Source: a virus
Lineage: Duplodnaviria > Caudoviricetes
Reading direction: 5' to 3' (one strand)
Virus record (IMG/VR): IMGVR_UViG_3300021514_000002
Span: 64,001 to 128,000 of that record
Length of the DNA: 64,000 nt
Made by a program: the position numbers and the translations under genes. Below the pieces are notes generated by a model. The model was not told the DNA's origin. It saw only the letters and a list, made by a program, of their open reading frames with translations, and ran no database searches. Shown in pieces: positions 781 to 13,108 of the stretch; position 1 is the first letter of the stretch; each line of letters begins with the position of its first letter.

Positions 781-855
781 TGGAGCTTAGGATGGGGTTT
801 GAACCCACGTTTCGACAATACCAATGTCGTGTTCTGCCAATTGAACTACCTAAGC
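781..855 (-). tRNA. tRNA-Thr(GGT)
   Basis: Cloverleaf GCTTAGG/CCTAAGC-T-CCA; anticodon arm CGACA-TT GGT AT-TGTCG; T loop TTCAAAC. Confidence 0.93.
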
Positions 856-860
856 AATAA

Positions 861-984
861 GTGTCATTTCGTTGGCATCGAACCAATCTTCTCCCACTGC
901 GGAATTACGTTACCATATTCAAGGAGGAATCGAACCCCAACAACCCTCGGGCGGGTGTTTTACCCGTTAAACTACAAACAACAC
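861..984 (-). ncRNA. tRNA-like RNA with two T-arms
   Basis: Closing stem GTGTTGTTT/AAATGACAC, D-arm GTTT-AACGGGTA-AAAC, two TTCGAT loops (GGGG/CCTC and TTGG/CCAA); lies 5 nt upstream of tRNA-Thr. Confidence 0.6.
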
Positions 985-990
985 TGTTCT

Positions 991-1218
991 TTAATTTTCT
1001 ATACTAATATAATAAGCCAATGGTGGTGTTATCGCCATGCCGCTTCTTGCATCAAATTCATGCTTTTCACAACAAATAACTTTGTATGGTTCACCTGTAT
1101 TCTCATCGTACTTAGTTTTTGTTTCGGTTACAACTTCATAACCACCTTGACAAAAACCACTATCACCATCAATGTATACAACATCACCAGCTTCTATATC
1201 ACTAAAAAAATCTTTCAT
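991..1218 (-). CDS. Hypothetical protein
   Basis: ORF in a tightly packed minus-strand run. Confidence 0.7.
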   Translation of the reverse strand: MKDFFSDIEAGDVVYIDGDSGFCQGGYEVVTETKTKYDENTGEPYKVICCEKHEFDARSGMAITPPLAYYISIEN

Positions 1219-1220
1219 CG

Positions 1221-1415
1221 TTAATCTTCTCTGATTATTTTAAAACCTTTAATTTCTGAAAAATCGGGAAACTGGTTCCCGTTATAAATTAATCGCCATG
1301 TTCCATCATCTAATTGATCAAGATGGATCATTTGTTTACTGGTTTTAACTGCTGTTACTTTAGATAATTCTAAAATTTCATCAGTACCTTCTACTTCTAT
1401 TGCACGTCTTGTCAT
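1221..1415 (-). CDS. Hypothetical protein
   Basis: ORF overlapping its neighbour by ATGA coupling. Confidence 0.7.
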   Translation of the reverse strand: MTRRAIEVEGTDEILELSKVTAVKTSKQMIHLDQLDDGTWRLIYNGNQFPDFSEIKGFKIIRED

Positions 1416-1702
1416 TTTAATATTTCCATCGCTCTATTAAAACTAGTAATGATATTTTTTTGTTTAACTTCTACATTTTTATCAAGATAATCTTCAACCA
1501 TTTCTTGAATGACTTCATCATATGATTCTAATTTCATTTCAGATTCAGAATCATTAATTTCTTTGATAATACTTGTTATCAATTCATCTGCGTTTTCACA
1601 ATCTCCCCGTAAAAAAACTGGGCAATCTTCACCACATTCACCACTCATGCCAACACTATGGCAGCTAAAGTTATATTGATCATCCCAATCATCATCTATC
1701 AT
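1412..1702 (-). CDS. Cys-rich acidic hypothetical protein (paralog of 1699-1905)
   Basis: GECGEDCPVFLRGDCE motif; C-terminus FNRAMEILK. Confidence 0.7.
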   Translation of the reverse strand: MIDDDWDDQYNFSCHSVGMSGECGEDCPVFLRGDCENADELITSIIKEINDSESEMKLESYDEVIQEMVEDYLDKNVEVKQKNIITSFNRAMEILK

Positions 1703-1905
1703 TTCAATATTTCCATCGCATCATCGAACGCATCATGTGGATTATAATCGTCTTCAATTAAACCCCAATCAATTAATTCTTCTATCAACCCTTGTTCTTT
1801 TAGCATGTCAACGATTTCATCTTCTATTGGGCAGTCAGCTTCACGTAAAACAGGACAATCCATACCACATCCCCCATTTATACTAATTGTATCACAACTA
1901 TTCAT
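1699..1905 (-). CDS. Cys-rich acidic hypothetical protein (paralog of 1412-1702)
   Basis: GGCGMDCPVLREADCP motif; C-terminus FDDAMEILK. Confidence 0.7.
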   Translation of the reverse strand: MNSCDTISINGGCGMDCPVLREADCPIEDEIVDMLKEQGLIEELIDWGLIEDDYNPHDAFDDAMEILK

Positions 1906-2171
1906 GTCATTTCCTTACTAAATTTGACTGCATTTTAGGAGTCGAACTGTACCAGTAAATTGCGTTTTATAATTCTGTTACGTATTCTAATGTAATATCT
2001 ACAATTTCTTCATTGCCATCATCAAATGTGTATATGACTATATTATTTGCGTCCATTGTTACGTCTAGCAATTTTGCATTGGGGGTAAACCCTTAGTACA
2101 TTTTCGTGCTATCGTGCTTTTACGGTATAAATCTTCAACCGCTTCATGTGTAATTTTTAACCTAAGCATTG

Positions 2172-2462
2172 TTATTCCTTATTCTTACTTTCACAGCGTG
2201 GACATTTTGCACCTGTTGGATAAGGTACACCATGAACTGCGCATTCATAGTACATTTCTGAACCAAACCCAGAGTAATAAGCTTTGTCTTGGGTTGTTTT
2301 ATAAATTTTTTCAAGTTTAATTGTAAGGTTATTTAAAGTCCTATGGATAAATTCACGATCTTTTTTGGATTCATTCATATATTCAAACCAATCATCGATC
2401 TTATTGATAGCTTTCTTATATTCTTCCAATACCAATTTCGTGTTTTTATTTTGTGTGCTCAT
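2172..2462 (-). CDS. Hypothetical protein with C-terminal Zn-binding motif
   Basis: CxxH...CxxC at the C-terminus. Confidence 0.65.
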   Translation of the reverse strand: MSTQNKNTKLVLEEYKKAINKIDDWFEYMNESKKDREFIHRTLNNLTIKLEKIYKTTQDKAYYSGFGSEMYYECAVHGVPYPTGAKCPRCESKNKE

Positions 2463-2672
2463 AAGTAATCCTATTTTATTGTAATTTCCCTTACCACCTT
2501 ATCGTGGCTAGTTAATACCATGTTAGCATATTTGATAATCTCTTCTTCTGCAGATTTTATATCATTATATCTGCCCATTATTTGTGACCACTTACCAAAA
2601 ATCCAAATGCCTTCAAATGACTGAATACAATAGGAACCATTATTTTTAATAACACGATATTTAAGTTTCATT

Positions 2673-2855
2673 TTATTTTGCCTTTGATATCTTTGTTGCA
2701 GCAACAATAATGCTTGCTACAAACGAAATAAGAAGAGTAAGAACAAATGGATACGTCCACCAATTTTCAAATACATGGCTATCTATTAATAGATAGCCGA
2801 ACCAAAAACATAACCACAAAGTAACAAATGGCAATAGCCACCATATATATTTCAT
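2673..2855 (-). CDS. Small two-helix membrane protein
   Basis: Two hydrophobic stretches. Confidence 0.6.
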   Translation of the reverse strand: MKYIWWLLPFVTLWLCFWFGYLLIDSHVFENWWTYPFVLTLLISFVASIIVAATKISKAK

Positions 2856-2857
2856 AA

Positions 2858-3328
2858 TTAATCCTTCAAATATTCATACGCAGTGAAATACTTTTCAAGA
2901 CGTTCAAAGTCTTTTTTACGCAAACCTTTCATACGCAAGATACGAGAATTGTGATCTAGATCTTCTCTTTTAACTAAACGTGCGTCAGTATTCATTGCAA
3001 GGATTTTAATATATTCCATATAAGGCATACCATCTTCGTGTGTCAGAGCTTTAACTGCGGCAAGAACGCGTTCAGAAAATCCCATAGCTCTAAGATTTTC
3101 AATAGTATAATCAGTATCTTCAATTAAATCATGAAGTACTGCTATTGTCATAAGTTCTTCATCATCCATGCCCACTTGAAACATTACATATAAGCAATGT
3201 AATACGTAATATTTTCCGCCTTTATCTTTGCGACCTTCAAATGCCTTTGATACTAATGTGATTGCTTTGTCTAACATGTTAATTTCCTTGAGTTTTTGTA
3301 TTATAACACAATTAATTATATTTTGCAA
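2858..3328 (-). CDS. HD-domain (p)ppGpp hydrolase-like protein (Mesh1/SpoT HD family)
   Basis: RKDKGGKYYVLHC, AVLHDLIEDT, VKxxDxxHN-like motifs. Confidence 0.82.
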   Translation of the reverse strand: MQNIINCVIIQKLKEINMLDKAITLVSKAFEGRKDKGGKYYVLHCLYVMFQVGMDDEELMTIAVLHDLIEDTDYTIENLRAMGFSERVLAAVKALTHEDGMPYMEYIKILAMNTDARLVKREDLDHNSRILRMKGLRKKDFERLEKYFTAYEYLKD

Positions 3329-3350
3329 CCTAAATTGATTACACTATTAC

Positions 3351-4763
3351 TTACCATTTCATTAAATAAGATAAGAATGTACGAACCCCAAATCCAGTTC
3401 CACCTGATTGGTTTGTACCAAACGGCTTATCAGCAAAAGCAGGTCCAGCAATATCTAAATGTAAATATTTTTTCTTTCCCTCTTCGGTCAATGCATTTGT
3501 CAAGAACAATCCCGCCTTATGACATCCTTGGTATTTTGTTCCCATGTTTGACAAGTCTGCAAGTTTGTCATCAACACCATCGAGCATAAATTTATGGAAT
3601 TCCGCGTTACAGAAAATTTCACCTTCTTTAAGTCCTACGGTTTTGATTTTATCTTTCATTTCATCTGCGAATCCGACCATGCCTGCCGCTTCTGCACCAA
3701 ATGCCGCCAATGCAGCACCTGTCAAGGTAGCGAACGTATACATTTCATCAAAATCTGGATTTTCTTCTTCAGCCAATACCATGTTGTCAAATAATACTAG
3801 GCGTCCTTCTGCATCGGTATTTTTAACATGAACGGTTTTCTTGTTCTTCATAGTAAGAACATCCCCAGGTTTATACGAGTGTTCATTAATCATATTTTCT
3901 GCTAAAGCAATATAGGCAGTTACATAATATGGTGAGCCGATTTCCACAAGACCTTTCATGATTCCCAAAACAGTCATAGCACCTGCTTTATCGCATTTCA
4001 TATTAACCATGCTGTCGGTTGGTTTAATAGAAAGCCCACCACTATCGTATGTCAATCCTTTACCAATTAATACCACATGTTTTGAAAAATCGCTTCTTCG
4101 TAATCCTTGCGGCGTGTATGTTAATTTTACGGTCATGGCAGGATGCGGGGACGAACGATTGACGGCAAGGTGTCCGTTCATTTCTAACTTTGATAATTCT
4201 GATTCGTCATATTTGGTGACTGTGATATTATCTACATCTGCAAACATATCAATAATTGTGTTAGTTATCGTAACAGAAGTCATATCTTCGGCGGTGCCAT
4301 TAACCATATCACGCGTAAAACATTGCGCGTTTGCACGGTTAGTGGCTCTGTGTATACATTGTTCTATCACTTCATCGTGAGCATCTTTTAGAACATTAGG
4401 ATAAAGGATAATTTTATTAAGAATGTTACTTTTTGGTTCTGATTTGTACTTTTGAAAACTATAATCACCTAAAACCAAACCTTCTAAAAACTCTTGACAA
4501 TTTGCAGGTACTTCAATATCTACAGATTCAATATTAAGATTATTAAGATGTTGCATTAGGTTGAAACCAGATTCCCGCCAATCATCTTGCAGCATATCTT
4601 CTTTTTGTAAAACGTAAACATAGCCAGCTGTGGCATCGGTATGTATTTTGAAACTTTCGCCAAGCATTACAATACTTGGAATTGTTTTGACTTTTTCTTT
4701 AGTAAGAAATTTTACGCCTAATTTTGATTTTTTTTGGTCATCTATCGCTAATATTAATTTCAT
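3351..4763 (-). CDS. Leucyl aminopeptidase (peptidase M17)
   Basis: GKGLTYDSGG, MKCDKAGA, NTDAEGRL, TLTGA, HLDIAG motifs. Confidence 0.95.
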   Translation of the reverse strand: MKLILAIDDQKKSKLGVKFLTKEKVKTIPSIVMLGESFKIHTDATAGYVYVLQKEDMLQDDWRESGFNLMQHLNNLNIESVDIEVPANCQEFLEGLVLGDYSFQKYKSEPKSNILNKIILYPNVLKDAHDEVIEQCIHRATNRANAQCFTRDMVNGTAEDMTSVTITNTIIDMFADVDNITVTKYDESELSKLEMNGHLAVNRSSPHPAMTVKLTYTPQGLRRSDFSKHVVLIGKGLTYDSGGLSIKPTDSMVNMKCDKAGAMTVLGIMKGLVEIGSPYYVTAYIALAENMINEHSYKPGDVLTMKNKKTVHVKNTDAEGRLVLFDNMVLAEEENPDFDEMYTFATLTGAALAAFGAEAAGMVGFADEMKDKIKTVGLKEGEIFCNAEFHKFMLDGVDDKLADLSNMGTKYQGCHKAGLFLTNALTEEGKKKYLHLDIAGPAFADKPFGTNQSGGTGFGVRTFLSYLMKW

Positions 4764-4805
4764 CTTACATCCTTTATATTGTATTTTCTCGCGTTACTAC
4801 ACTTC

Positions 4806-4834
4806 AGTATACAGGATTTAAAAAGGAATGTCAA
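4806..4834 (-). promoter_or_regulatory. sigma70-type promoter for the aminopeptidase block
   Basis: TTGACA-N17-TATACT on the minus strand. Confidence 0.7.
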
Positions 4835-4840
4835 TAATTT

Positions 4841-4916
4841 TGGTGGGAACGGTGGGAGTTGAACCCACGCCTTTCTGATTAAGAGTCAGATATACTAGCC
4901 ACTATACGACGTTCCC
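4841..4916 (-). tRNA. tRNA-Lys(CTT)
   Basis: GGGAACG/CGTTCCC-A-CCA; TCTGA-CT CTT AA-TCAGA. Confidence 0.95.
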
Positions 4917-4922
4917 GTTATT

Positions 4923-4998
4923 TGGTAGTCCCGCACGGAATCGAACCGTGTGTAGTCTTCTTTGTAAGAGAAGTGCGTCGCCATTCAGCATCGGGACT
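4923..4998 (-). tRNA. tRNA-Val(TAC)
   Basis: AGTCCCG/CGGGACT-A-CCA; CTTCT-CT TAC AA-AGAAG; TTCGATT T loop. Confidence 0.93.
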
Positions 4999-5179
4999 AG
5001 TGTTTATTTTTTCTGGCTATCATTAAAGACTAAAGGTTCACCTTCATCTTTTATAACGGCTTCAAGTAATCGTTTTGCTTCTTCAAAATATTCCATGGAT
5101 GATTCATCAACGCCATCTGCAGGACAAAAATAAATATTCATTTTCTTTTTCCGTTGTTTCATTTTCGTTCTCCGTTGTT

Positions 5180-5270
5180 TGGCTCCCTCGGGTGGATTCG
5201 AACCACCATAACGCTTTCAAGTATACGCTTGTTTAACAGACAAGTCTCTTACCAGTTAGAGTACAAGGGA
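5180..5270 (-). tRNA. tRNA-Asn(GTT) with 20-nt variable region
   Basis: TCCCTTG/CGAGGGA-G-CCA; CTTGT-CT GTT AA-ACAAG; variable region CGTATACTTGAAAGCGTTAT. Confidence 0.88.
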
Positions 5271-5277
5271 ATAAATT

Positions 5278-5353
5278 TGGCTGGCACGGTGGGATTCGAA
5301 CCCACATACACTTGTTTAACAGACAAGCCTCCTACCGGATAGAGCACACGCCA
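5278..5353 (-). tRNA. tRNA-Asn(GTT)
   Basis: TGGCGTG/CGTGCCA-G-CCA; same anticodon arm as the neighbouring Asn; 5-nt variable loop. Confidence 0.93.
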
Positions 5354-5469
5354 ATAACTTTTTACTTATCAAACCATAGATGTAAAATCCTTTCAACTTC
5401 ATCTAACAATTCGTTCATTTCTTTAATTAATTCATCTTTACTTTTCATTTCTTTTCCTATCTTTCAATT

Positions 5470-5557
5470 TGGTGCCAGCAGTAGGATTCGAACCTACAGT
5501 GAGTTTTCACCCGCCGGATTACAAAACCGGTGCAATACCTGATTATGCGATACTGGC
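5470..5557 (-). tRNA. tRNA-Thr(TGT) with long variable arm
   Basis: GCCAGTA/TGCTGGC-A-CCA; CCGGT-TT TGT AA-TCCGG with a U31-U39 mismatch; variable arm GTGA-AAAC-TCAC. Confidence 0.82.
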
Positions 5558-5718
5558 AATTGTACTACTTTGCGACATTTCAGCCCTCGTCAAATATAGC
5601 ACGTATTCGTTTACCTAAAGCAGCAGCCTGTTCTCTTACATGTTTAGAACTTTCAAGCTGTTCAGGTGTAATTTCTTTTTGTTCAAATTCTTTGGCACCT
5701 TCACCAACAAATTTTAAA

Positions 5719-6057
5719 TTAGGAAACGCTTCTTTCATGTTCATGTTTTTCACCTATATAATATTTTAATCTTTTAATAACTTCTTCGCTGTATTCTTTA
5801 CCTTTAGTATCTAATAAAGACATTTCAATTTTTAAAAGAATTGTTTTAATATTCCAGTTACTGATTAAACCGTTTTCATAAAAATCGATCCAATCAATAA
5901 CCATATTTTGTTTTTCAAATTCATCAATAATAAAATCAAGGGGTAAACCATGTGTTTCTACTATTTTAAAAACACCTTTTATTACTTGTTTATTATCTGA
6001 TGTTATCCCTGAAGTGTCAAGGTGTTTCTTTTTCCTACCGCGTTTGGCGATTTCATT
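5719..6057 (-). CDS. Small protein with an AlaRS-like segment; start codon uncertain
   Basis: Frame open from 6057 to 5719 reads GVFKIVETHGLPLDFIIDEFEKQNMVIDWIDF, resembling the F-x-L-YDTxGFPxD...VDxxGF segment of alanyl-tRNA synthetase; first in-frame ATG only at 5904. Confidence 0.5.
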   Translation of the reverse strand, partial: NEIAKRGRKKKHLDTSGITSDNKQVIKGVFKIVETHGLPLDFIIDEFEKQNMVIDWIDFYENGLISNWNIKTILLKIEMSLLDTKGKEYSEEVIKRLKYYIGEKHEHERSVS

Positions 6058-6060
6058 TCA

Positions 6061-6276
6061 TTATCCCCCGTCTTTAGATTCTTCAATAAGGTTTAAATGT
6101 TTTCTTATCCATCGCATGAATAATATTGCTTTGTCTTCACTATTAAATGCTGCAGTGCCTGCATCACTTATTGGTACAGGAAATTCAAATCCACATTCAG
6201 TAACGTACCATAATTCGCCTTCTTTATAAAATAAAAACTTTACTACTTTACCTTTAACCATATCTTTAATAGACAT
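6061..6276 (-). CDS. Hypothetical protein
   Basis: ORF with RBS between tRNA genes. Confidence 0.7.
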   Translation of the reverse strand: MSIKDMVKGKVVKFLFYKEGELWYVTECGFEFPVPISDAGTAAFNSEDKAILFMRWIRKHLNLIEESKDGG

Positions 6277-6294
6277 TTTCTTCTTCCTAGTTTG

Positions 6295-6367
6295 TGGAGC
6301 AGACGGGATTTGAACCCGCCGCAGAAAATCTTGCCAGAATTTCTCGTCCCCTTAGACATACTGCCCC
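6295..6367 (-). tRNA. tRNA-Ala(GGC), no encoded CCA
   Basis: GGGGCAG/CTGCTCC-A with G3-U70; loop CT GGC AA; followed by CAA instead of CCA. Confidence 0.87.
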
Positions 6368-6376
6368 GTTGTTGTT

Positions 6377-6451
6377 TGGTAGCCCCGTCAAGACTCGAAC
6401 TTGACTCTAACGGTTATCAGCCGTTTGTAATCACCCATATACTACGGGGCT
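6377..6451 (-). tRNA. tRNA-Ile(GAT)
   Basis: AGCCCCG/CGGGGCT-A-CCA; AACGG-CT GAT AA-CCGTT. Confidence 0.94.
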
Positions 6452-6517
6452 ATAGCCGTCTTTTACTGCTGTCATACAGCACCTACAAGTAGGAGGTCGA
6501 TTACAACGGTCGCCTAT
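6452..6517 (-). ncRNA. Structured RNA element abutting the 5' end of tRNA-Ile
   Basis: Closing stems ATAG/CTAT and CCGT/ACGG enclose hairpins CCTA-CTTG-TAGG and TGCTGT-ATG-ACAGCA. Confidence 0.4.
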
Positions 6518-6615
6518 TTTAATATAATCTTTATTCTTCCACTCAGTCCGGTAACTAGTATGGATGTGGGAGGCTCATTCAACCTGTGTACTATATTAAA
6601 ATTCTTTTATACTAA

Positions 6616-6939
6616 TTACTTCTTATCTGGATACTGTGCATCCAGTTCATCAATGTAAGCGTAAGGACTTTGCCCTGGCTTAAATATTTTGATATTCTTA
6701 AAACCATTATCTTCGGTAATAAGACTATCTTTTTCATCAATGGAACCACGATGTTTTGCACCATATTTTCCTTCAACTTTACCAGTCGCGGGATTTAAAT
6801 CACCCCATTTAATATGAGGATCTCCCATTGGTTCTACTGCATACGTTTTTCCTGTTCTGAAAGAAACAATCATATGTCTTCCAGTATCTTCGGTTTTTTC
6901 AAAAAACTTCTTTCTAAATTCTGGTGACAACATTGTCAT
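6616..6939 (-). CDS. Hypothetical protein (start trimmed to MTMLSPEF)
   Basis: The longer ORF call runs through tRNA-Lys; RBS AGGAG precedes the ATG at 6939. Confidence 0.7.
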   Translation of the reverse strand: MTMLSPEFRKKFFEKTEDTGRHMIVSFRTGKTYAVEPMGDPHIKWGDLNPATGKVEGKYGAKHRGSIDEKDSLITEDNGFKNIKIFKPGQSPYAYIDELDAQYPDKK

Positions 6940-6959
6940 TCTCCTTTTTATTATAAATT

Positions 6960-7035
6960 TGGTGGACTGCCCCAGCCACGATCTGGGAACCTCTCGATTA
7001 AAAGTCGAGTACTCTGCCAATTGAGTTAGCAGTCC
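6960..7035 (-). tRNA. tRNA-Lys(TTT) with atypical T loop
   Basis: GGACTGC/GCAGTCC-A-CCA; CTCGA-CT TTT AA-TCGAG; T arm CCCAG-ATCGTGG-CTGGG. Confidence 0.88.
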
Positions 7036-7040
7036 TAATC

Positions 7041-7664
7041 TTAATATTCTATTCCCCATTCATTTAATGTCGTTTTGACTCTGTTATAATTGTTACCCTT
7101 TGCCGCCAATCCAAGCTTTAATAAACATTGTCTAATATTACCAGTTTCTATATACGTTTTAACTATCTGCTCTGCCGTAATAGGTTCTTTAGTTACTTTC
7201 TTTTTATTTCTACCACGCCAAGTAAGTGTTAAACTATGACAATTGGGACATAACCCTTCAAGGTTCCCCCTTTCATTATTTTGATTATCCCCATCTTTAT
7301 GTTCTAGTTCAAGAACTAATGGTTGATTTAACCATCTGTCCAGTTTACATCTATTACATTTATGTTCCTGTTCAAGAAAAACTCGCTTACGAATCCTTCC
7401 AAACTTCAAACTACTAAAATCTTCCGCTAGTAGTTTAGTTTCCCAAGTCTTCTTTCGTTTTTCTATCATATTTTCTATTACTATTGGATCTAATAATGGG
7501 GTCTTCAATCTCCCCTCCTGCATAGCACTCTTAACGCTATTAGAAATTTTTCTTTTTGTTTCGGCAGTCTTGATTCTACTGTTTGCACATCCACGGGAAC
7601 AAAACTTCCCACTTCCGAACGTACCATCATGCTCTTTATTGCATTTTATATTTTTACATTTCAT
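7041..7664 (-). CDS. HNH homing endonuclease
   Basis: CNRC...LELEHKDGDNQNNERGNLEGLCPNCHS; inserted between tRNAs; late promoter TATAAATA at 7684-7691. Confidence 0.88.
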   Translation of the reverse strand: MKCKNIKCNKEHDGTFGSGKFCSRGCANSRIKTAETKRKISNSVKSAMQEGRLKTPLLDPIVIENMIEKRKKTWETKLLAEDFSSLKFGRIRKRVFLEQEHKCNRCKLDRWLNQPLVLELEHKDGDNQNNERGNLEGLCPNCHSLTLTWRGRNKKKVTKEPITAEQIVKTYIETGNIRQCLLKLGLAAKGNNYNRVKTTLNEWGIEY

Positions 7665-7720
7665 ATTCGTACCCCTTTTAACTTATTTATATCAATAGTT
7701 AAAAAGTGTGCGATTAAAAT

Positions 7721-7794
7721 TGGTGGAGCTACAGGGAATCGAACCCTGGTCTTCGCGGTGCAAGCGCAACGTAATCCCGTTATACTACAGCCCC
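7721..7794 (-). tRNA. tRNA-Ala(TGC)
   Basis: GGGGCTG/TAGCTCC-A-CCA with G3-U70; loop CT TGC AC. Confidence 0.95.
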
Positions 7795-7798
7795 AAAA

Positions 7799-7877
7799 TG
7801 TAGTCCCTATCGCTGACGTACTTCACATACGCTTAGGATGATTACCATCGTCCCAGTTATGATAGGATTTACCTACA
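7799..7877 (-). ncRNA. Structured three-way-junction RNA between tRNA-Lys and tRNA-Ala
   Basis: TGTAG/CTACA and TCCTATC/GATAGGG stems enclose GATG-GTAAT-CATC and GCGTA-TGTGAAG-TACGT hairpins. Confidence 0.45.
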
Positions 7878-7934
7878 CAAACTAATCTACTTGTTAAAGA
7901 ACAAATACACCATCAAGGGTATATTTTAAAAACT

Positions 7935-8020
7935 TGGTGGGGCCGCAGGGATTCGAACCCTGAATGCGTATTCCGCGCCGGATTAAAAGTCCGGTATCCT
8001 AGCCGTTAGATGACAGCCCC
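7935..8020 (-). tRNA. tRNA-Lys(TTT) with long variable arm
   Basis: GGGGCTG/CGGCCCC-A-CCA; CCGGA-CT TTT AA-TCCGG; 15-nt variable region with GCG-GAATA-CGC hairpin. Confidence 0.9.
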
Positions 8021-8027
8021 ATAAATC

Positions 8028-8642
8028 TTAAACTAATCTTTTGAATAATGCATCGTTACCGTTACATTTTTCTTTAAGTCGATCAATCCATTTTCTATTC
8101 TTAATCTTAAACATTCTAACAATTTTGTTTTTCTTGTTGTGATACTTACATACCACCCCTTCAAACGTCATATCTTCTAATGTTCCATTTTTAATAGAAG
8201 TAACTAAATCTTCTGTTAACACACCTTTGTATAAAACTTTGGGTATACCTACATCTTCAAATAATTCTATGAAGTGTAACGGTTCAACCATTCCACGTTT
8301 ATACACATTGACATCAATCAATGTCACTTGGTGTTCTTCGTTCATATCATGCGAGCCAGCAAATGAGCTCTCACCATGAAACTCAAAAAATACTACTACA
8401 CGTTCCCACTTCTTATTAGAAAATATTTCAGCTAATCGTTCCTGATGTTTTTCTAATATTATATCAACCGCTTCACCCAACATAGGATGTTTATTATCAA
8501 TCAGTTGATTTCTTGAACCAAATTTATAAAACCCTTTCTTCTTTGACCATTCTGCTCTTATATTAGAACCGTCAAGTTTATCAAACACTACTACTTTTGT
8601 TCTTTCTAACTTTGTACTTATTGATGGATATGATTTCATCAT
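8028..8642 (-). CDS. ATP-dependent RNA ligase family nucleotidyltransferase (standalone adenylation domain)
   Basis: Motif I DKLDGSN, FGSRN, FFEFHG, LIDV, motif IV FEGVVCK, motif V FKIK. Confidence 0.82.
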   Translation of the reverse strand: MMKSYPSISTKLERTKVVVFDKLDGSNIRAEWSKKKGFYKFGSRNQLIDNKHPMLGEAVDIILEKHQERLAEIFSNKKWERVVVFFEFHGESSFAGSHDMNEEHQVTLIDVNVYKRGMVEPLHFIELFEDVGIPKVLYKGVLTEDLVTSIKNGTLEDMTFEGVVCKYHNKKNKIVRMFKIKNRKWIDRLKEKCNGNDALFKRLV

Positions 8643-9491: not shown

Positions 9492-9852
9492 TTTTCCATG
9501 ATTTCGTCTATTTTAGATACCATATCACTATTTTACTTAAAAGTTATTCTATTTGAATCTTCGGTGCTAAAATATTTAACATTGAGCACTGCATCATTAA
9601 ATAACGCGGCTGCTTCAACACATCTGGCTTTTTTGCGTTTCTTATCAACATAACAAATGAATACATGTTGTATATTATTATATGTAAAAAAATCACCAAG
9701 CTTCATCTTCGGCCATATCTTCGGCATCTTTCTAAGGGTATATTCTATATTATGGATTCAATTTTCTTGGAAATTGAATCCATAATATATTCTTTGTCGC
9801 TATCTAAAACATTGGATATGACTATAGTTAATTCTTTACGTTCATCCATGAT

Positions 9853-12093
9853 TTATACCCAATTAGCAAGAATTTCATCTACTTTAGAAGCCATCCCTAC
9901 ATCAAAGATGGTATCATATTCTTTGCCCTCTTGACGTTCATAGTCAATGGAATAGCCTCGTGCTTCGGCGTGTAAACGAAGTAGATCAAACATGTTAGGT
10001 TTATCAACCAACATGGATTCAATAGATTTTGCCATTAAAATAATACTTCCAGCTTTATTTTCCACGTTTGAATTGCGAAAAGAGCTTAATGAGACATCTG
10101 CCCAAATTATTTGATTTGTTTCTAAATCTAAAATCAATGGGATATTATACCTCGTATCACCATCAATATCAAATTTGTGCTTAACTGTAGTAGGTTCAAA
10201 TACTTTACCACTATTAACCTTATCGCGTCCCATAACACCTGCAAAACATTCAAAAGTATTAAATCCTTGACCAGTATATGAAATAACATTCATTACAACA
10301 TATCGTATATGATTACGACGCGCAGTGTCAATATCAATATCAATAAACTCTGCTGCGCCATTAGGTGCAGACTGAATATCGCCAGAATGTACGCCGCCAA
10401 CATCAGATAAGCGCGTATAAGATAACTGGCCTTTGTAGTTCCAATTAGCATCATAAGATACTGCGCTTAAATCAACATCAACACGATCATCTTTATTTTC
10501 TTTCCAATATAAGAACATTCTTGTTGCATTATTCTTTGCTAATGGTATATGAGAACCACGGGCAACCGTAACTAAACTTTTGCTTGCATTTCTTTGCACC
10601 AATGGCACTAAGTAACCTTTTAAATCTTTGTTAATATAAATATTACCCAAATCTTCAAGTTTAGCAAAGCGTTGTAATAATTCATTAGTGATTGTATTGA
10701 CGACATTGATTGCAAAATCCGCATCAATTGTATCACGTTCATCTTTAATAACTTGGATCTTCGCCAAGCTACCTTTAGGCATGAAGTAACGCTCGCCTGA
10801 ATTAATAGAACGATACTTAAAATGCGAAGACAATGTTAACAACATTGGCGTAGGTATTTTTTCTACCAATTCATTAAAAGTCGTTAACACGGGTACAGGT
10901 GCATCAAACGCACGCAACATCCAATCCATGCGTCGTGCAAACTCGCCGGGTCTGGTTGCCAAAATCGCAATCAAGTCCCGCTCAGCGATCCATGCATCGG
11001 AACCAGTAAGTGATTTAATAGTAACAACAAACTTTTCAACCTTGCTATTAAATGTTTCAATTGTGTCAGCACGATTTCTTAGCGTGTCACATGCATTGAA
11101 AGCATTTGGATATTTCTTGGCATACTTACCAATATGTAAAACTTCTGCAAGACGAATCCAACGCATTTTATAGCGAAGCATATCTTCTTCTGGACTATTT
11201 ACATTGTCCAGTAACCACATAATAACCCTGCGTTCTTTATTTGATAAACGGAAACGTGTAACTTCTTTCAAAGATACATCACCACCAGATAACTGAACAG
11301 CAAGACGCAATACGTCTGTTGCCGTTTTGATATAATCAATCAATATGTATGATGCTATGGTGGTGTAGTCACTATGTGAACCGTTCGGATCGTATGTATA
11401 ATCTACCGCAAGCCCAGCAATCAATGCTACGTTTTCTTTCATGGTAATCATATTTGATACACATGTAAACATGCTTGGATCTTCTTTGACTAACTTCGTA
11501 ATAATATCACGATTATCTTCTGAAATAGAAGACTTAGCTTCTAATAGATTCGTAAAGATTTGTTTAACATCTTCTACATTAATTAATTTAATAATTTTTA
11601 AAGGGGTAATATCTTCCAATACTGGACGATCATTTTCATCCGTAGTTTCATCTACTTGGCATTGACAAATTGGGCAGGCACCAAAATCATCCATATTAAA
11701 TAAACGCGTATCAATAACATGACCACATGAAAGTGGTTTAATGTCTTCTGGTACGCAATCAATTAAATTGGTCACAAATCCAATAATACGTCTGAAAAAA
11801 TATTCATCATCATCGGGAATATCCTGTGGGAAATTCTTAAATAATGGACGATACTTTACATGATCGCCAACCATTTTGGATAAGTTTTCGACTAACATTG
11901 TATGGAAATTTCTGAAATCGGTTTCAGTTAAGGTACGGATGGCACGAATAACATTACCATCTAGCGTATACCCAAGTTGAGATATATCTAATAAAAGATC
12001 GCGAATATGAACTGCTGGTGTTTTCCATGTTGATTCAGTAACTACGACAGACTGTTTGTATTGTAAAGCAATGGCATTTTGTAACACGTTCAT
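9853..12093 (-). CDS. Large protein with a helical N-terminal region and a C-terminal TerD-like domain
   Basis: C-terminal RVDVDLSAV...HSGDIQSAPNGAAEFIDID TerD-type acidic metal-binding motifs; internal CxxC. Confidence 0.7.
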   Translation of the reverse strand: MNVLQNAIALQYKQSVVVTESTWKTPAVHIRDLLLDISQLGYTLDGNVIRAIRTLTETDFRNFHTMLVENLSKMVGDHVKYRPLFKNFPQDIPDDDEYFFRRIIGFVTNLIDCVPEDIKPLSCGHVIDTRLFNMDDFGACPICQCQVDETTDENDRPVLEDITPLKIIKLINVEDVKQIFTNLLEAKSSISEDNRDIITKLVKEDPSMFTCVSNMITMKENVALIAGLAVDYTYDPNGSHSDYTTIASYILIDYIKTATDVLRLAVQLSGGDVSLKEVTRFRLSNKERRVIMWLLDNVNSPEEDMLRYKMRWIRLAEVLHIGKYAKKYPNAFNACDTLRNRADTIETFNSKVEKFVVTIKSLTGSDAWIAERDLIAILATRPGEFARRMDWMLRAFDAPVPVLTTFNELVEKIPTPMLLTLSSHFKYRSINSGERYFMPKGSLAKIQVIKDERDTIDADFAINVVNTITNELLQRFAKLEDLGNIYINKDLKGYLVPLVQRNASKSLVTVARGSHIPLAKNNATRMFLYWKENKDDRVDVDLSAVSYDANWNYKGQLSYTRLSDVGGVHSGDIQSAPNGAAEFIDIDIDTARRNHIRYVVMNVISYTGQGFNTFECFAGVMGRDKVNSGKVFEPTTVKHKFDIDGDTRYNIPLILDLETNQIIWADVSLSSFRNSNVENKAGSIILMAKSIESMLVDKPNMFDLLRLHAEARGYSIDYERQEGKEYDTIFDVGMASKVDEILANWV

Positions 12094-12120
12094 ATTATTA
12101 TCCTTTATTAGACGAAAAGA

Positions 12121-12297
12121 AAACGGGAATTGGACTCTCTATTTCGGGCTACCTTTGGGCGTGAACCCGCAGGTTGCGTTAGCTGATTTAGAAGGAAGAG
12201 AATTCCATAGCCGTTTATTTCAAATTTAAGTGTCAGGAATTGGAGACTCTAATTCACATTTAAAGTAGTTTAGAAGGAAGAGAACTTCATAGCTGAC
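12121..12297 (-). ncRNA. Two tandem copies of a structured RNA motif in the 5' leader of the TerD-domain gene
   Basis: Units 12232-12297 and 12121-12216 share CTATG..TTCTCTTCCTTCTAAA...AGAG..TCCAATTCC; closing stems differ but covary (GTCAG/CTGAC, AAACGG/CCGTTT). Confidence 0.75.
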
Positions 12298-12304
12298 GAA
12301 AGAT

Positions 12305-12333
12305 ATATTATAATAAAGGGGTTAAAATGTCAA
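12305..12333 (-). promoter_or_regulatory. sigma70-type promoter
   Basis: TTGACA-N17-TAATAT; predicted start about 12298, at the first RNA motif. Confidence 0.65.
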
Positions 12334-12343
12334 GGGTTTTTTA

Positions 12344-13108
12344 CTAAAAATTCAAAAAATTTATAACTTGTTGATTTTCTTGAATTCTTTTCTTAGCCAT
12401 TTCTATGTATTTTTGTGACAATTCAATACCAATGAAATCACGGTGTAGTTTTTTTGCAGCCAATGCGGTAGTTCCAGACCCCATGAAAGGATCAAGAATG
12501 GTTTTTGCTGTAGTTGAAGATATAATTCGTTCAGGTAATTCTATGGGAAAAGGCGCAGGATGTTCATTATTAGATTCTTGTCCAATATCCCAGACATCCC
12601 CAAACCCGTTTGCTTTATCTGCTAATTTAAAGTCAGGTTTGCATATCATGTATATTACTTCATATGTAGGAAGGAAATAACTTTTATTGAAGTTTATCCC
12701 TCCATTTCGTCGCCAAATTATGACTTGTCGTACAGGGAATCCTTCAAGAATATCATGCCTATCCTGTAATAATCCATTTTGTACACGCCATTTGTGGTTA
12801 TAAAAAATCGCACCATTTTCAGGAATAATACGGAACATTTCAGTTAAGCAATCACGTTGCCATTGGACATATTCATCATGGGGCATATTATCATTATGTT
12901 CTGAATAACCGTCTTTTAATGCTGCGTTTGGCCATTTACTACTTTTGGTGCCAATAGAACTTAGGCCATTCCCAGATGAATTTTTTATATTATATGGTGG
13001 GGATGTTACAATTAATTCAATGCTATTATCTGGAATTTCTTTCATTACTTGCAGCGAATCACCACAAATGAAATTATTTGTGAAGTCGGAAGGATATTGT
13101 AAAGTCAT
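12344..13108 (-). CDS. DNA methyltransferase, N4-C/N6-A beta class
   Basis: IVTSPPYN before HPAPFP and ILDPFMGSGTT. Confidence 0.92.
   Translation of the reverse strand: MTLQYPSDFTNNFICGDSLQVMKEIPDNSIELIVTSPPYNIKNSSGNGLSSIGTKSSKWPNAALKDGYSEHNDNMPHDEYVQWQRDCLTEMFRIIPENGAIFYNHKWRVQNGLLQDRHDILEGFPVRQVIIWRRNGGINFNKSYFLPTYEVIYMICKPDFKLADKANGFGDVWDIGQESNNEHPAPFPIELPERIISSTTAKTILDPFMGSGTTALAAKKLHRDFIGIELSQKYIEMAKKRIQENQQVINFLNF

Follow-up and report, generated by a model that had tools for sequence, protein, structure and literature searches.

Why should a phage gene for a large, largely unannotated protein be preceded by two tandem copies of a structured RNA, and do these RNAs serve the messenger in which they lie or the protein that it encodes? 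The locus that raises this question is found in a stretch of 64,000 nucleotides (hereafter the window), which comprises bases 64001–128000 of the 363.5-kb virus record IMGVR_UViG_3300021514_000002, a jumbo phage; all coordinates given below without a prefix are positions in this window. The gene lies on the minus strand at 12093–9853 and encodes a protein of 746 amino acids (P0001), for which the open reading frame (ORF), more than 2000 homologues and an AlphaFold model are available. A preliminary description of the sequence had presented P0001 as a giant, a label that 746 residues do not bear out, and had suggested that the RNA units ahead of it act either as an autoregulatory tandem switch or as the RNA part of a ribonucleoprotein. 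Here, we describe how the two units belong to a widespread structured RNA family that is uncatalogued in Rfam, and how this family is linked exclusively to the gene of one protein family. We also set out why the protein and the RNAs probably form a particle resembling that of Ro60 and the Y RNAs, in which the protein would bind an RNA family of its own and a TerD domain takes the place of the vWA domain.

The two units occupy the minus-strand leader of the gene, unit 1 at 12299–12229 and unit 2 at 12217–12119, and have a common architecture. In unit 1 the closing stem P1, formed by GUCAG (12297–12293) and CUGAC (12236–12232), is followed by GCUAU, the stem P2, the CUUCCUUCUA loop and a short apical segment of 15 nt; the core of unit 2 is the same, its P1 being formed by ACGG and CCGU and its apical segment reaching 43 nt. 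The closing stems of the two units differ in sequence, yet both pair. The units also share the exact 16-mer TTCTCTTCCTTCTAAA (12284–12269 in unit 1 and 12202–12187 in unit 2), which is present twice against 0.06 matches expected, a count reached in none of 100 shuffles. Together with the covariation described below, these features confirm the tandem structured units with unlike but paired closing stems that the preliminary description had proposed. The additional 30-nt hairpin that it had placed in unit 1 is, by contrast, part of unit 2, the gene-proximal unit and the second in the transcript. Alignment A1 and a minimum-energy fold position this hairpin at 12177–12148 on the minus strand (GCAACC-UGC-GGGU..GCCC-AAA-GGUAGC), and in A1 it is conserved in two related loci (L121 and L122) with the compensatory changes A-U to G-C and C-G to U-A. 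No tRNA-like domain was seen in the two window units.

That these units are members of a much larger family follows from two covariance models. The first (R1), built from six units of the window phage and the loci of the homologues with 73% and 71% identity, scores unit 1 at 65.7 bits and unit 2 at 97 bits, and it found further copies, often in tandem, beside homologues with 20–36% identity in other jumbo phages; one of its low-scoring matches (L133:4368), which resembles the T-arm and acceptor end of a tRNA, was dropped. The second (R2) was made from bacterial copies only and, without any phage sequence in its training, matches both window units, at 47.6 bits (E = 5e-11) for unit 1 and 45.5 bits (E = 2e-10) for unit 2. 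A pattern of the conserved core matched at least 120 bacterial loci, and among the matches listed are representatives of Paenibacillus, Brevibacillus, Bacillus, Pseudomonas, Acidobacteriota, Bacteroidota, Cyanobacteria, Saccharimonadales and others. The exact 16-mer occurs in viral contigs mostly by chance, 95 of 100 tested loci having no R2 match.

Read from 5' to 3', the consensus consists of P1 (5 bp, the last two pairs of which are G-C), GCUAU, P2, UCCUUCUA, 6–77 variable nucleotides, P2', (A)UUUC and P1', where P2 is a bulged stem of about 10 bp that ends apically in two conserved pairs, C-G and U-A. The CUUCCUUCUA loop is invariant and the stem P2 covaries, and the stems of the units ahead of the homologues with 73% and 71% identity to P0001 also carry compensatory changes. 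In an alignment of 85 bacterial copies, 97.1% of the cells are paired, as compared with 42–51% when the partners are slid, 395 cells are changed on both sides, and the covariation score is 0.50 against at most 0.09 for the slid controls. The corresponding values for 150 phage copies, which were found through the protein, are 94.1% against 35–51%, 655 cells changed on both sides, and a score of 0.853 against at most 0.204. Both alignments were fitted to the model, so that these counts lean towards structure, and the slid-partner controls were drawn from the same alignments. Searches of Rfam returned no family at 12050–12380 with E values up to 10 (Y RNA, YrlA and riboswitches included); at gathering thresholds they gave no match to the RNA in ten bacterial loci and only tRNAs in the 64-kb window.

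The RNA and the gene for the protein occur together whichever of the two is taken as the starting point. Among the matches listed, a search that set out from the RNA found a homologue of the protein within the 8-kb locus in 70 of 120 bacterial pattern matches, and the gene was present in 55 of the 60 bacterial loci with a model match, invariably on the strand of the RNA. In about 44 of those 55 loci the RNA precedes the gene, often ending 0–30 nt ahead of the start codon, and in about 11 it follows on the 3' side. Five whole bacterial genomes (approximately 30 Mb) contain RNA matches only beside the gene. In the opposite direction, a search for related loci with the single protein gave no relatives and the protein alignment A3 was needed, by means of which 80 viral loci with 2.5-kb flanks were located. 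The covariance search at homologous genes that the preliminary description had advised found the motif in 74 of these 80 viral loci, with one to eight copies per locus and all 214 matches on the strand of the gene. It found the motif likewise in 30 of 30 loci from Paenibacillaceae, as two to three tandem units 5' of the gene, and in all three loci from Variovorax, Leptospira and one more bacterium, where it lies 3' of the gene. The gene itself is sporadic, being present in 37 of 136 Paenibacillaceae genomes and in 1 of 201 genomes of one order, and no protein-coding neighbour is conserved across 73 bacterial loci, the largest cluster comprising 6 of the 73. The RNA family is thus linked exclusively to the gene of a single protein family.

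This linkage does not require that every copy lie in the leader of the gene. The window phage has one copy of the gene only, yet it carries a third strong copy of the RNA outside the window, at genome positions 12902–12996 on the minus strand (L370:1501–1595), 63 kb from the gene, where it immediately follows a tRNA-Ser(UGA) that belongs to another tRNA cluster. The apical insert of this third copy holds a T-arm-like hairpin (CUUGG-UUCGAUA-CCAAG) and an anticodon-arm-like hairpin, and its fold has a z score of −3.95; a weak fourth match is present in the same phage at 319908–319981. The adjoining tRNA (L370:1597–1691, 95 nt, with encoded CCA), called Ser(UGA) by ARAGORN, has tRNA-Sec as its best Rfam model, at 35.9 bits against a threshold of 47. 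Other phages show comparable arrangements. The 344-kb phage IMGVR_UViG_3300032254_000001 has copies beside its homologue (L242) and about 20 kb off (L139), as well as a 141-nt member (L163:11967–12107) whose 77-nt insert contains a tRNA T-arm, GGAGGUUCGACUCCUCC; a low-scoring R1 match at L163:12037 was dropped as an entry of its own, as it is part of this longer true copy with its tRNA-like insert. Four viral contigs (L419, L411, L412 and L405) surround the gene with four to eight units, the inserts of which reach about 80 nt, where the window has two units. The 437-kb phage IMGVR_UViG_3300031133_000383 (L199 and L376) encodes two paralogues of the protein some 170 kb apart, of which the one with 23% identity has units 3' of it and the one with 40% identity has none within 2.5 kb. 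That the RNA is often 3' of the gene, forms arrays of up to eight units, occurs in the window phage 63 kb away from the gene, and is accompanied by no conserved protein-coding neighbour other than that gene are signs that it may act in trans.

What kind of protein, then, do these RNAs accompany? The more than 2000 homologues of P0001 are named "hypothetical", "RING finger family 4 domain-containing" or "TerD family", and PHROGs places it in a family of unknown function. Its AlphaFold model, computed from 67 sequences, has a pLDDT of 90.7 and a pTM of 0.85, and was compared with known structures with VIA-align and Foldseek. The helical-repeat domain of residues ~175–500 (11571–10594, minus strand) resembles the TROVE domain of Ro60. 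VIA-align gives Z scores of 11.1–13.6 over 315–346 residues to six Ro60 entries, the next unrelated fold reaching Z 7.4, and Foldseek with the full model returns the Ro60 proteins of Thermus phage phiLo, Xenopus, human and Deinococcus at probabilities of 0.98–1.00. When the N-terminal part is folded alone (pLDDT 82.8) and used in an exhaustive search, the phiLo Ro60 (Z 11.4) and the Deinococcus Rsr (Z 10.5) are the top two of 48,161 PDB chains, followed by a match with Z 8.4 over about 107 residues. The structural comparison of the helical part suggested in the preliminary description accordingly yields Ro60/TROVE as its best match, and on the strength of these models we regard Ro60 as the best available match for residues ~175–500, which does not prove that the two are homologous. 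Of 30 residues that are invariant in the N-terminal part, ten are arginine or lysine.

Residues ~519–690 (10539–10024, minus strand) form a TerD-like beta-sandwich, with VIA-align Z scores of 15.3–16.7 to 3ibz, 2qng and 2qz7 (13.5–16.7 over all TerD structures) and a Foldseek probability of 1.00. The TerD domain that had been read from the sequence is therefore upheld by its fold only, whereas the Pfam TerD profile (PF02342) misses P0001 and matches 3 of 67 homologues, at best with E = 1.3e-4. The acidic residues D539, D541, D572, E582 and D585 are invariant within a DVDLS...SGD...EFIDID pattern, which is reminiscent of the Ca2+ sites of TerD proteins. The fold of this domain is that of the TerD proteins of ter clusters (PDB 2kxt, 3ibz and 2qz7); unlike those stand-alone proteins of about 190 residues, however, it is fused here behind a helical module of 500 residues, and no ter-cluster genes are nearby. 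The N-terminal part further contains a zinc-knuckle or RING-like insert (residues 121–151, C-x-H-x14-C-x2-C; 11733–11641, minus strand) resembling Pfam Prok-RING_4 (PF14447), which scores P0001 at 25.3 bits against a cut-off of 27 and, with E values of at most 1, matches 55 of the 67 homologues. No more than four zinc ligands can be recognised, namely C123, H125, C140 and C143, and the knuckle is missing in some homologues, e.g., that of locus L166. Neither Foldseek nor VIA-align revealed a nuclease fold in P0001.

The likeness to Ro60 and its RNAs also concerns the layout of the locus. The closest known systems are the Salmonella rsr-yrlBA-rtcBA operon, Rsr with Yrn1 in Deinococcus, and Ro60 with Yrl1 and Yrl2 in the Thermus phage phiLo (PMC4201824, PMC12135203). 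Bacterial Y RNAs, one of which mimics tRNA, are encoded within 4 kb of the Ro60 gene and on the same strand (PMC4201824); in phage phiLo, two Y-like RNAs just 5' of the Ro60 gene bind Ro60 and, together with Ro60, the host PNPase (PMC12135203). In the system described here, small RNAs composed of stem, internal loop and stem similarly lie to one side or the other of the gene for a putatively ring-like helical-repeat protein and share its strand, both window units lying directly 5' of the gene and within that distance of about 4 kb. The RNAs often come as two in tandem, as the two of phiLo do, and some copies of the family outside the window carry hairpins that look like tRNA arms. The long stem that the 5' and 3' ends of bacterial Y RNAs form, interrupted by a bulge or internal loop, has its counterpart in the 5-bp P1, the GCUAU/(A)UUUC loop and the bulged P2 of about 10 bp, an arrangement backed by the covariation. 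Unlike Ro60, the present protein gives no TROVE sequence or profile match, has its C-terminal TerD beta-sandwich (residues 519–690) where Ro60 has the vWA domain with its MIDAS, and contains an extra N-terminal part of about 170 residues that bears the zinc knuckle. Bacterial Y RNAs carry the motif GNCGAA(N0–1)G (PMC4201824), whereas CGAA is found in neither window unit and the present family has invariant elements of its own, i.e., GCUAU, (A)UUUC and CUUCCUUCUA; nor, unlike Y RNA and YrlA, does it have an Rfam match even at E 10. The system is built on the Ro60/Y-RNA plan and yet stands outside it by the defining features of TROVE profile, vWA domain, GNCGAA motif and Rfam Y RNA.

A single bacterial locus adds a further parallel. 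In Salmonella, the rsr-yrlBA-rtcBA operon is driven by RtcR. In Variovorax (LR594667.1), the homologous gene is preceded, about 60 nt ahead of its start codon, by a perfect sigma-54 promoter, TGGCACGGGCATTGCA (TGGCAC-N5-TTGCA; L366:6929–6944), a divergent gene for an RtcR activator (L366:4023–5675) lies 1.3 kb away, and two RNA units follow 3' of the gene, behind an ORF of 93 amino acids.

Ro60 binds Y RNA on its outer surface, through a bulged stem, and the ends of misfolded RNA in its central hole. The ribonucleoprotein suggested in the preliminary description fits the present data well, given that Ro60 is the best fold match, that the RNA follows the gene across phages and bacterial phyla, and that the window phage has a third copy at a distance of 63 kb from its gene, and we consider it probable that a particle of the Ro60/Y-RNA type is formed. 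In such a particle, the RNAs would be transcribed with the gene from the promoter at 12333–12305 and would fold into hairpins of stem, internal loop and stem. The ring protein would bind them through P1, the GCUAU/(A)UUUC internal loop and P2, much as Ro60 binds the bulged stem of Y RNA. The single-stranded CUUCCUUCUA loop and the variable apical insert, which is tRNA-like in some copies, would then be displayed, and might act either as a gate on the protein or as a tether between it and a further RNA or enzyme. The TerD domain would serve as a cation- or ligand-binding module at the place of the vWA/MIDAS of Ro60, and the particle as a whole may act in RNA surveillance or repair during the conflict between phage and host. 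We advance a more far-reaching version of this proposal only tentatively, and think it rather unlikely as a whole. In it, the system would be a second lineage of particles of a ring protein and a small RNA, separate from Ro60/Y RNA and distributed among jumbo phages and many bacterial phyla. The invariant pyrimidine loop of its RNA (CUUCCUUCUA), loosely like the 3' tail of 16S rRNA, would act on some RNA or enzyme of the translation machinery, either luring it away as a decoy or holding it as a tether. The TerD domain would link the particle to a signal carried by Ca2+ or a nucleotide, and phages would use the particle during infection to protect or hijack host RNA metabolism.

Several observations weigh against the Ro60-like particle and should be considered together. 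The likeness to TROVE is one of fold only, and helical repeats may reach Z scores of 10.5–13.6 by their arrangement alone. The TROVE profile (PF05731) misses P0001 and all 67 homologues at E up to 1, and Foldseek with the N-terminal domain alone gives Ro60 an E value of 0.15, with a TM score of about 0.3 and a probability of 0.93–0.97, and nothing at E up to 0.001. A profile made from A3 retrieved no Ro60 chain from the PDB sequences, phmmer and profile searches giving only spurious matches; PF05731 was not found in the phage genome, although control genomes matched. Furthermore, 6 of the 80 viral loci are without the RNA within 2.5 kb of the gene, the link to RtcR is seen at one locus only, and both window units are situated in the 5' leader, the second ending 26 nt ahead of the start codon.

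The last of these points leads to the strongest of the alternatives, namely a cis-acting autoregulatory leader, in which the protein, a ligand or an ion would bind the tandem hairpins and control termination at a U-rich tract or access to the ribosome-binding site (RBS), the RNA having no role apart from the messenger. On the minus strand the units lie between promoter and start codon, in this order: the end of a DNA methylase gene (12344) is followed by a promoter, unit 1, unit 2, a U-rich tract, the AAAGGA site and the ORF. The promoter is a sigma-70-like TTGACA-17-TAATAT at 12333–12305 (minus strand), a consensus match that agrees at 10 of 12 positions in a consensus scan; it would put the transcription start at about 12298, the foot of unit 1 and within a few bases of its stem, in agreement with the earlier placement of the first unit at the predicted start. 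A TTGACA promoter is found at equal distance in L121 and L122, and the promoter and tandem two-unit layout precede the homologues with 73% and 71% identity. The U-rich tract, UUUUCUUUUCG (12123–12113, minus strand), which comes after unit 2 and recurs there in L121 and L122, may act as a partial terminator or mark where the RNA has its 3' end. Across the family, runs of at least four U follow 39% of last or isolated units as against 20% of internal units, a weak signal whose modest size led us to drop the tract as a general terminator. The Shine-Dalgarno sequence AAAGGA (12106–12101, minus strand) stands 7 nt ahead of the ATG at 12093. Because both units are part of the leader, a cis-regulatory effect on the gene of the window phage is possible, in keeping with the units of most bacterial loci, which also lie ahead of the gene, and such an effect would be compatible with a particle.

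As the whole explanation, nevertheless, the leader seems improbable to us. A cis effect cannot account for the copies 3' of the gene, which occur in no fewer than 11 of the bacterial loci found by pattern, in each of the three protein-found loci mentioned above and in many phage loci, nor for the copies far from the gene in the window phage and others. The complementarity of the UCCUU loop to the RBS, to which the preliminary description had drawn attention, is real in so far as the AAAGGA site exists, but a complementarity of five bases is trivial. A switch that masks the RBS fails as a general function, as the CUUCCUUCUA loop is invariant whatever the RBS, also where the RNA is 3' of the gene and where the homologues have no Shine-Dalgarno sequence (L166 and L129). 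Finally, no conserved alternative pairing of the terminator/antiterminator kind, and no conserved expression platform, was found.

The RNA array could instead inhibit the protein in the manner of a type III toxin–antitoxin system, so that harm is unleashed when infection or stress lowers the amount of RNA. As in ToxIN, an array of RNA units and, in the window, a U-rich tract stand ahead of a single protein gene, and the module consists of two parts without another conserved neighbour and is distributed over bacteria and phages in the patchy way of conflict systems. The antitoxins of type III systems, however, are near-identical short direct repeats that are cut apart by an endoribonuclease toxin, whereas the units described here differ in their stems and covary, can be 3' of the gene, and accompany a protein without a nuclease fold; moreover, the module is carried by lytic jumbo phages. 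We therefore give this explanation little credence.

Still less probable is the riboswitch reading, in which an ion or metabolite, for instance one linked to TerD, would be sensed by units arranged in tandem for a cooperative response. Tandem units in a 5' leader and highly conserved unpaired nucleotides are indeed what a riboswitch could display. Riboswitches, however, always lie in 5' leaders, have an expression platform and precede functionally related genes of several families. The present RNA accompanies a single protein family instead of various transport or metabolic genes, its copies frequently stand 3' of the gene or belong to arrays with as many as eight units, it has no conserved expression platform, and no Rfam riboswitch matches it even at E 10. 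That the units are repeated genomic elements (terminators, REP-like sequences or the ends of mobile elements) lying near the gene by chance would fit their hairpin shape, their several copies and the U tails of some, but is scarcely credible, since many phyla and phages share one and the same 10-nt loop and internal-loop sequence and show compensatory changes in the stems, the five whole bacterial genomes have them only beside the gene, and all 214 viral matches lie on the strand of the gene.

If the Ro60-like particle is the correct reading, as we think probable, its interest lies in the comparison that it affords. Ro60 with its Y RNAs, whose function in bacteria is as yet only partly understood, is among the few RNA–protein particles that phages and bacteria share with animals; the present system follows the same plan with different parts, an RNA family of its own and TerD for vWA. 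The module occurs in about a quarter of one bacterial family, the Paenibacillaceae, and in many large phages, and some of its bacterial carriers can be cultured (Paenibacillus, Brevibacillus, Pseudomonas and Variovorax), so that the role of such particles can be studied there independently. With it, a well-supported family of structured RNAs that Rfam lacks comes to light, and a likely role can be assigned to a large protein family whose present annotations are no more than "hypothetical", "RING finger family 4" or "TerD family". Our literature search, which missed some relevant comparative-genomics work, found no paper on a link between TerD and TROVE/Ro60 or on this RNA.

With regard to the surroundings of the gene, a blastn search of the region against a phage collection gave no match, and the region is present in five metagenome DNA runs of hydrothermal-vent and marine origin, with no RNA run among those listed. 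The context of RNA repair (ligase, CCA-adding enzyme and tRNAs) that the preliminary description had pointed to recurs in close phage relatives, where an RNA ligase is kept as a neighbour of the gene and, in one relative, a CCA-adding enzyme as well; in bacteria this setting is not conserved. RtcB was not found in the phage genome. In the window itself, an array of 11 tRNA genes extends over 781–8020 on the minus strand (Thr, Lys, Val, Asn twice, Thr, Ala, Ile, Lys, Ala and Lys), with an HNH endonuclease gene interleaved at 7041–7664 and a short RNA ligase gene after it at 8028–8642. Several of the tRNA genes, 86–91 nt in length and called Asn, Thr or Lys by ARAGORN, may be mis-typed tRNAs with long arms. 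Finally, a perfect palindrome of 20 bp with a 4-nt loop lies at 9746–9789, 64 nt past the stop codon of the gene; read from either strand it gives a hairpin, and it may terminate transcription in both directions or be bound by a protein.

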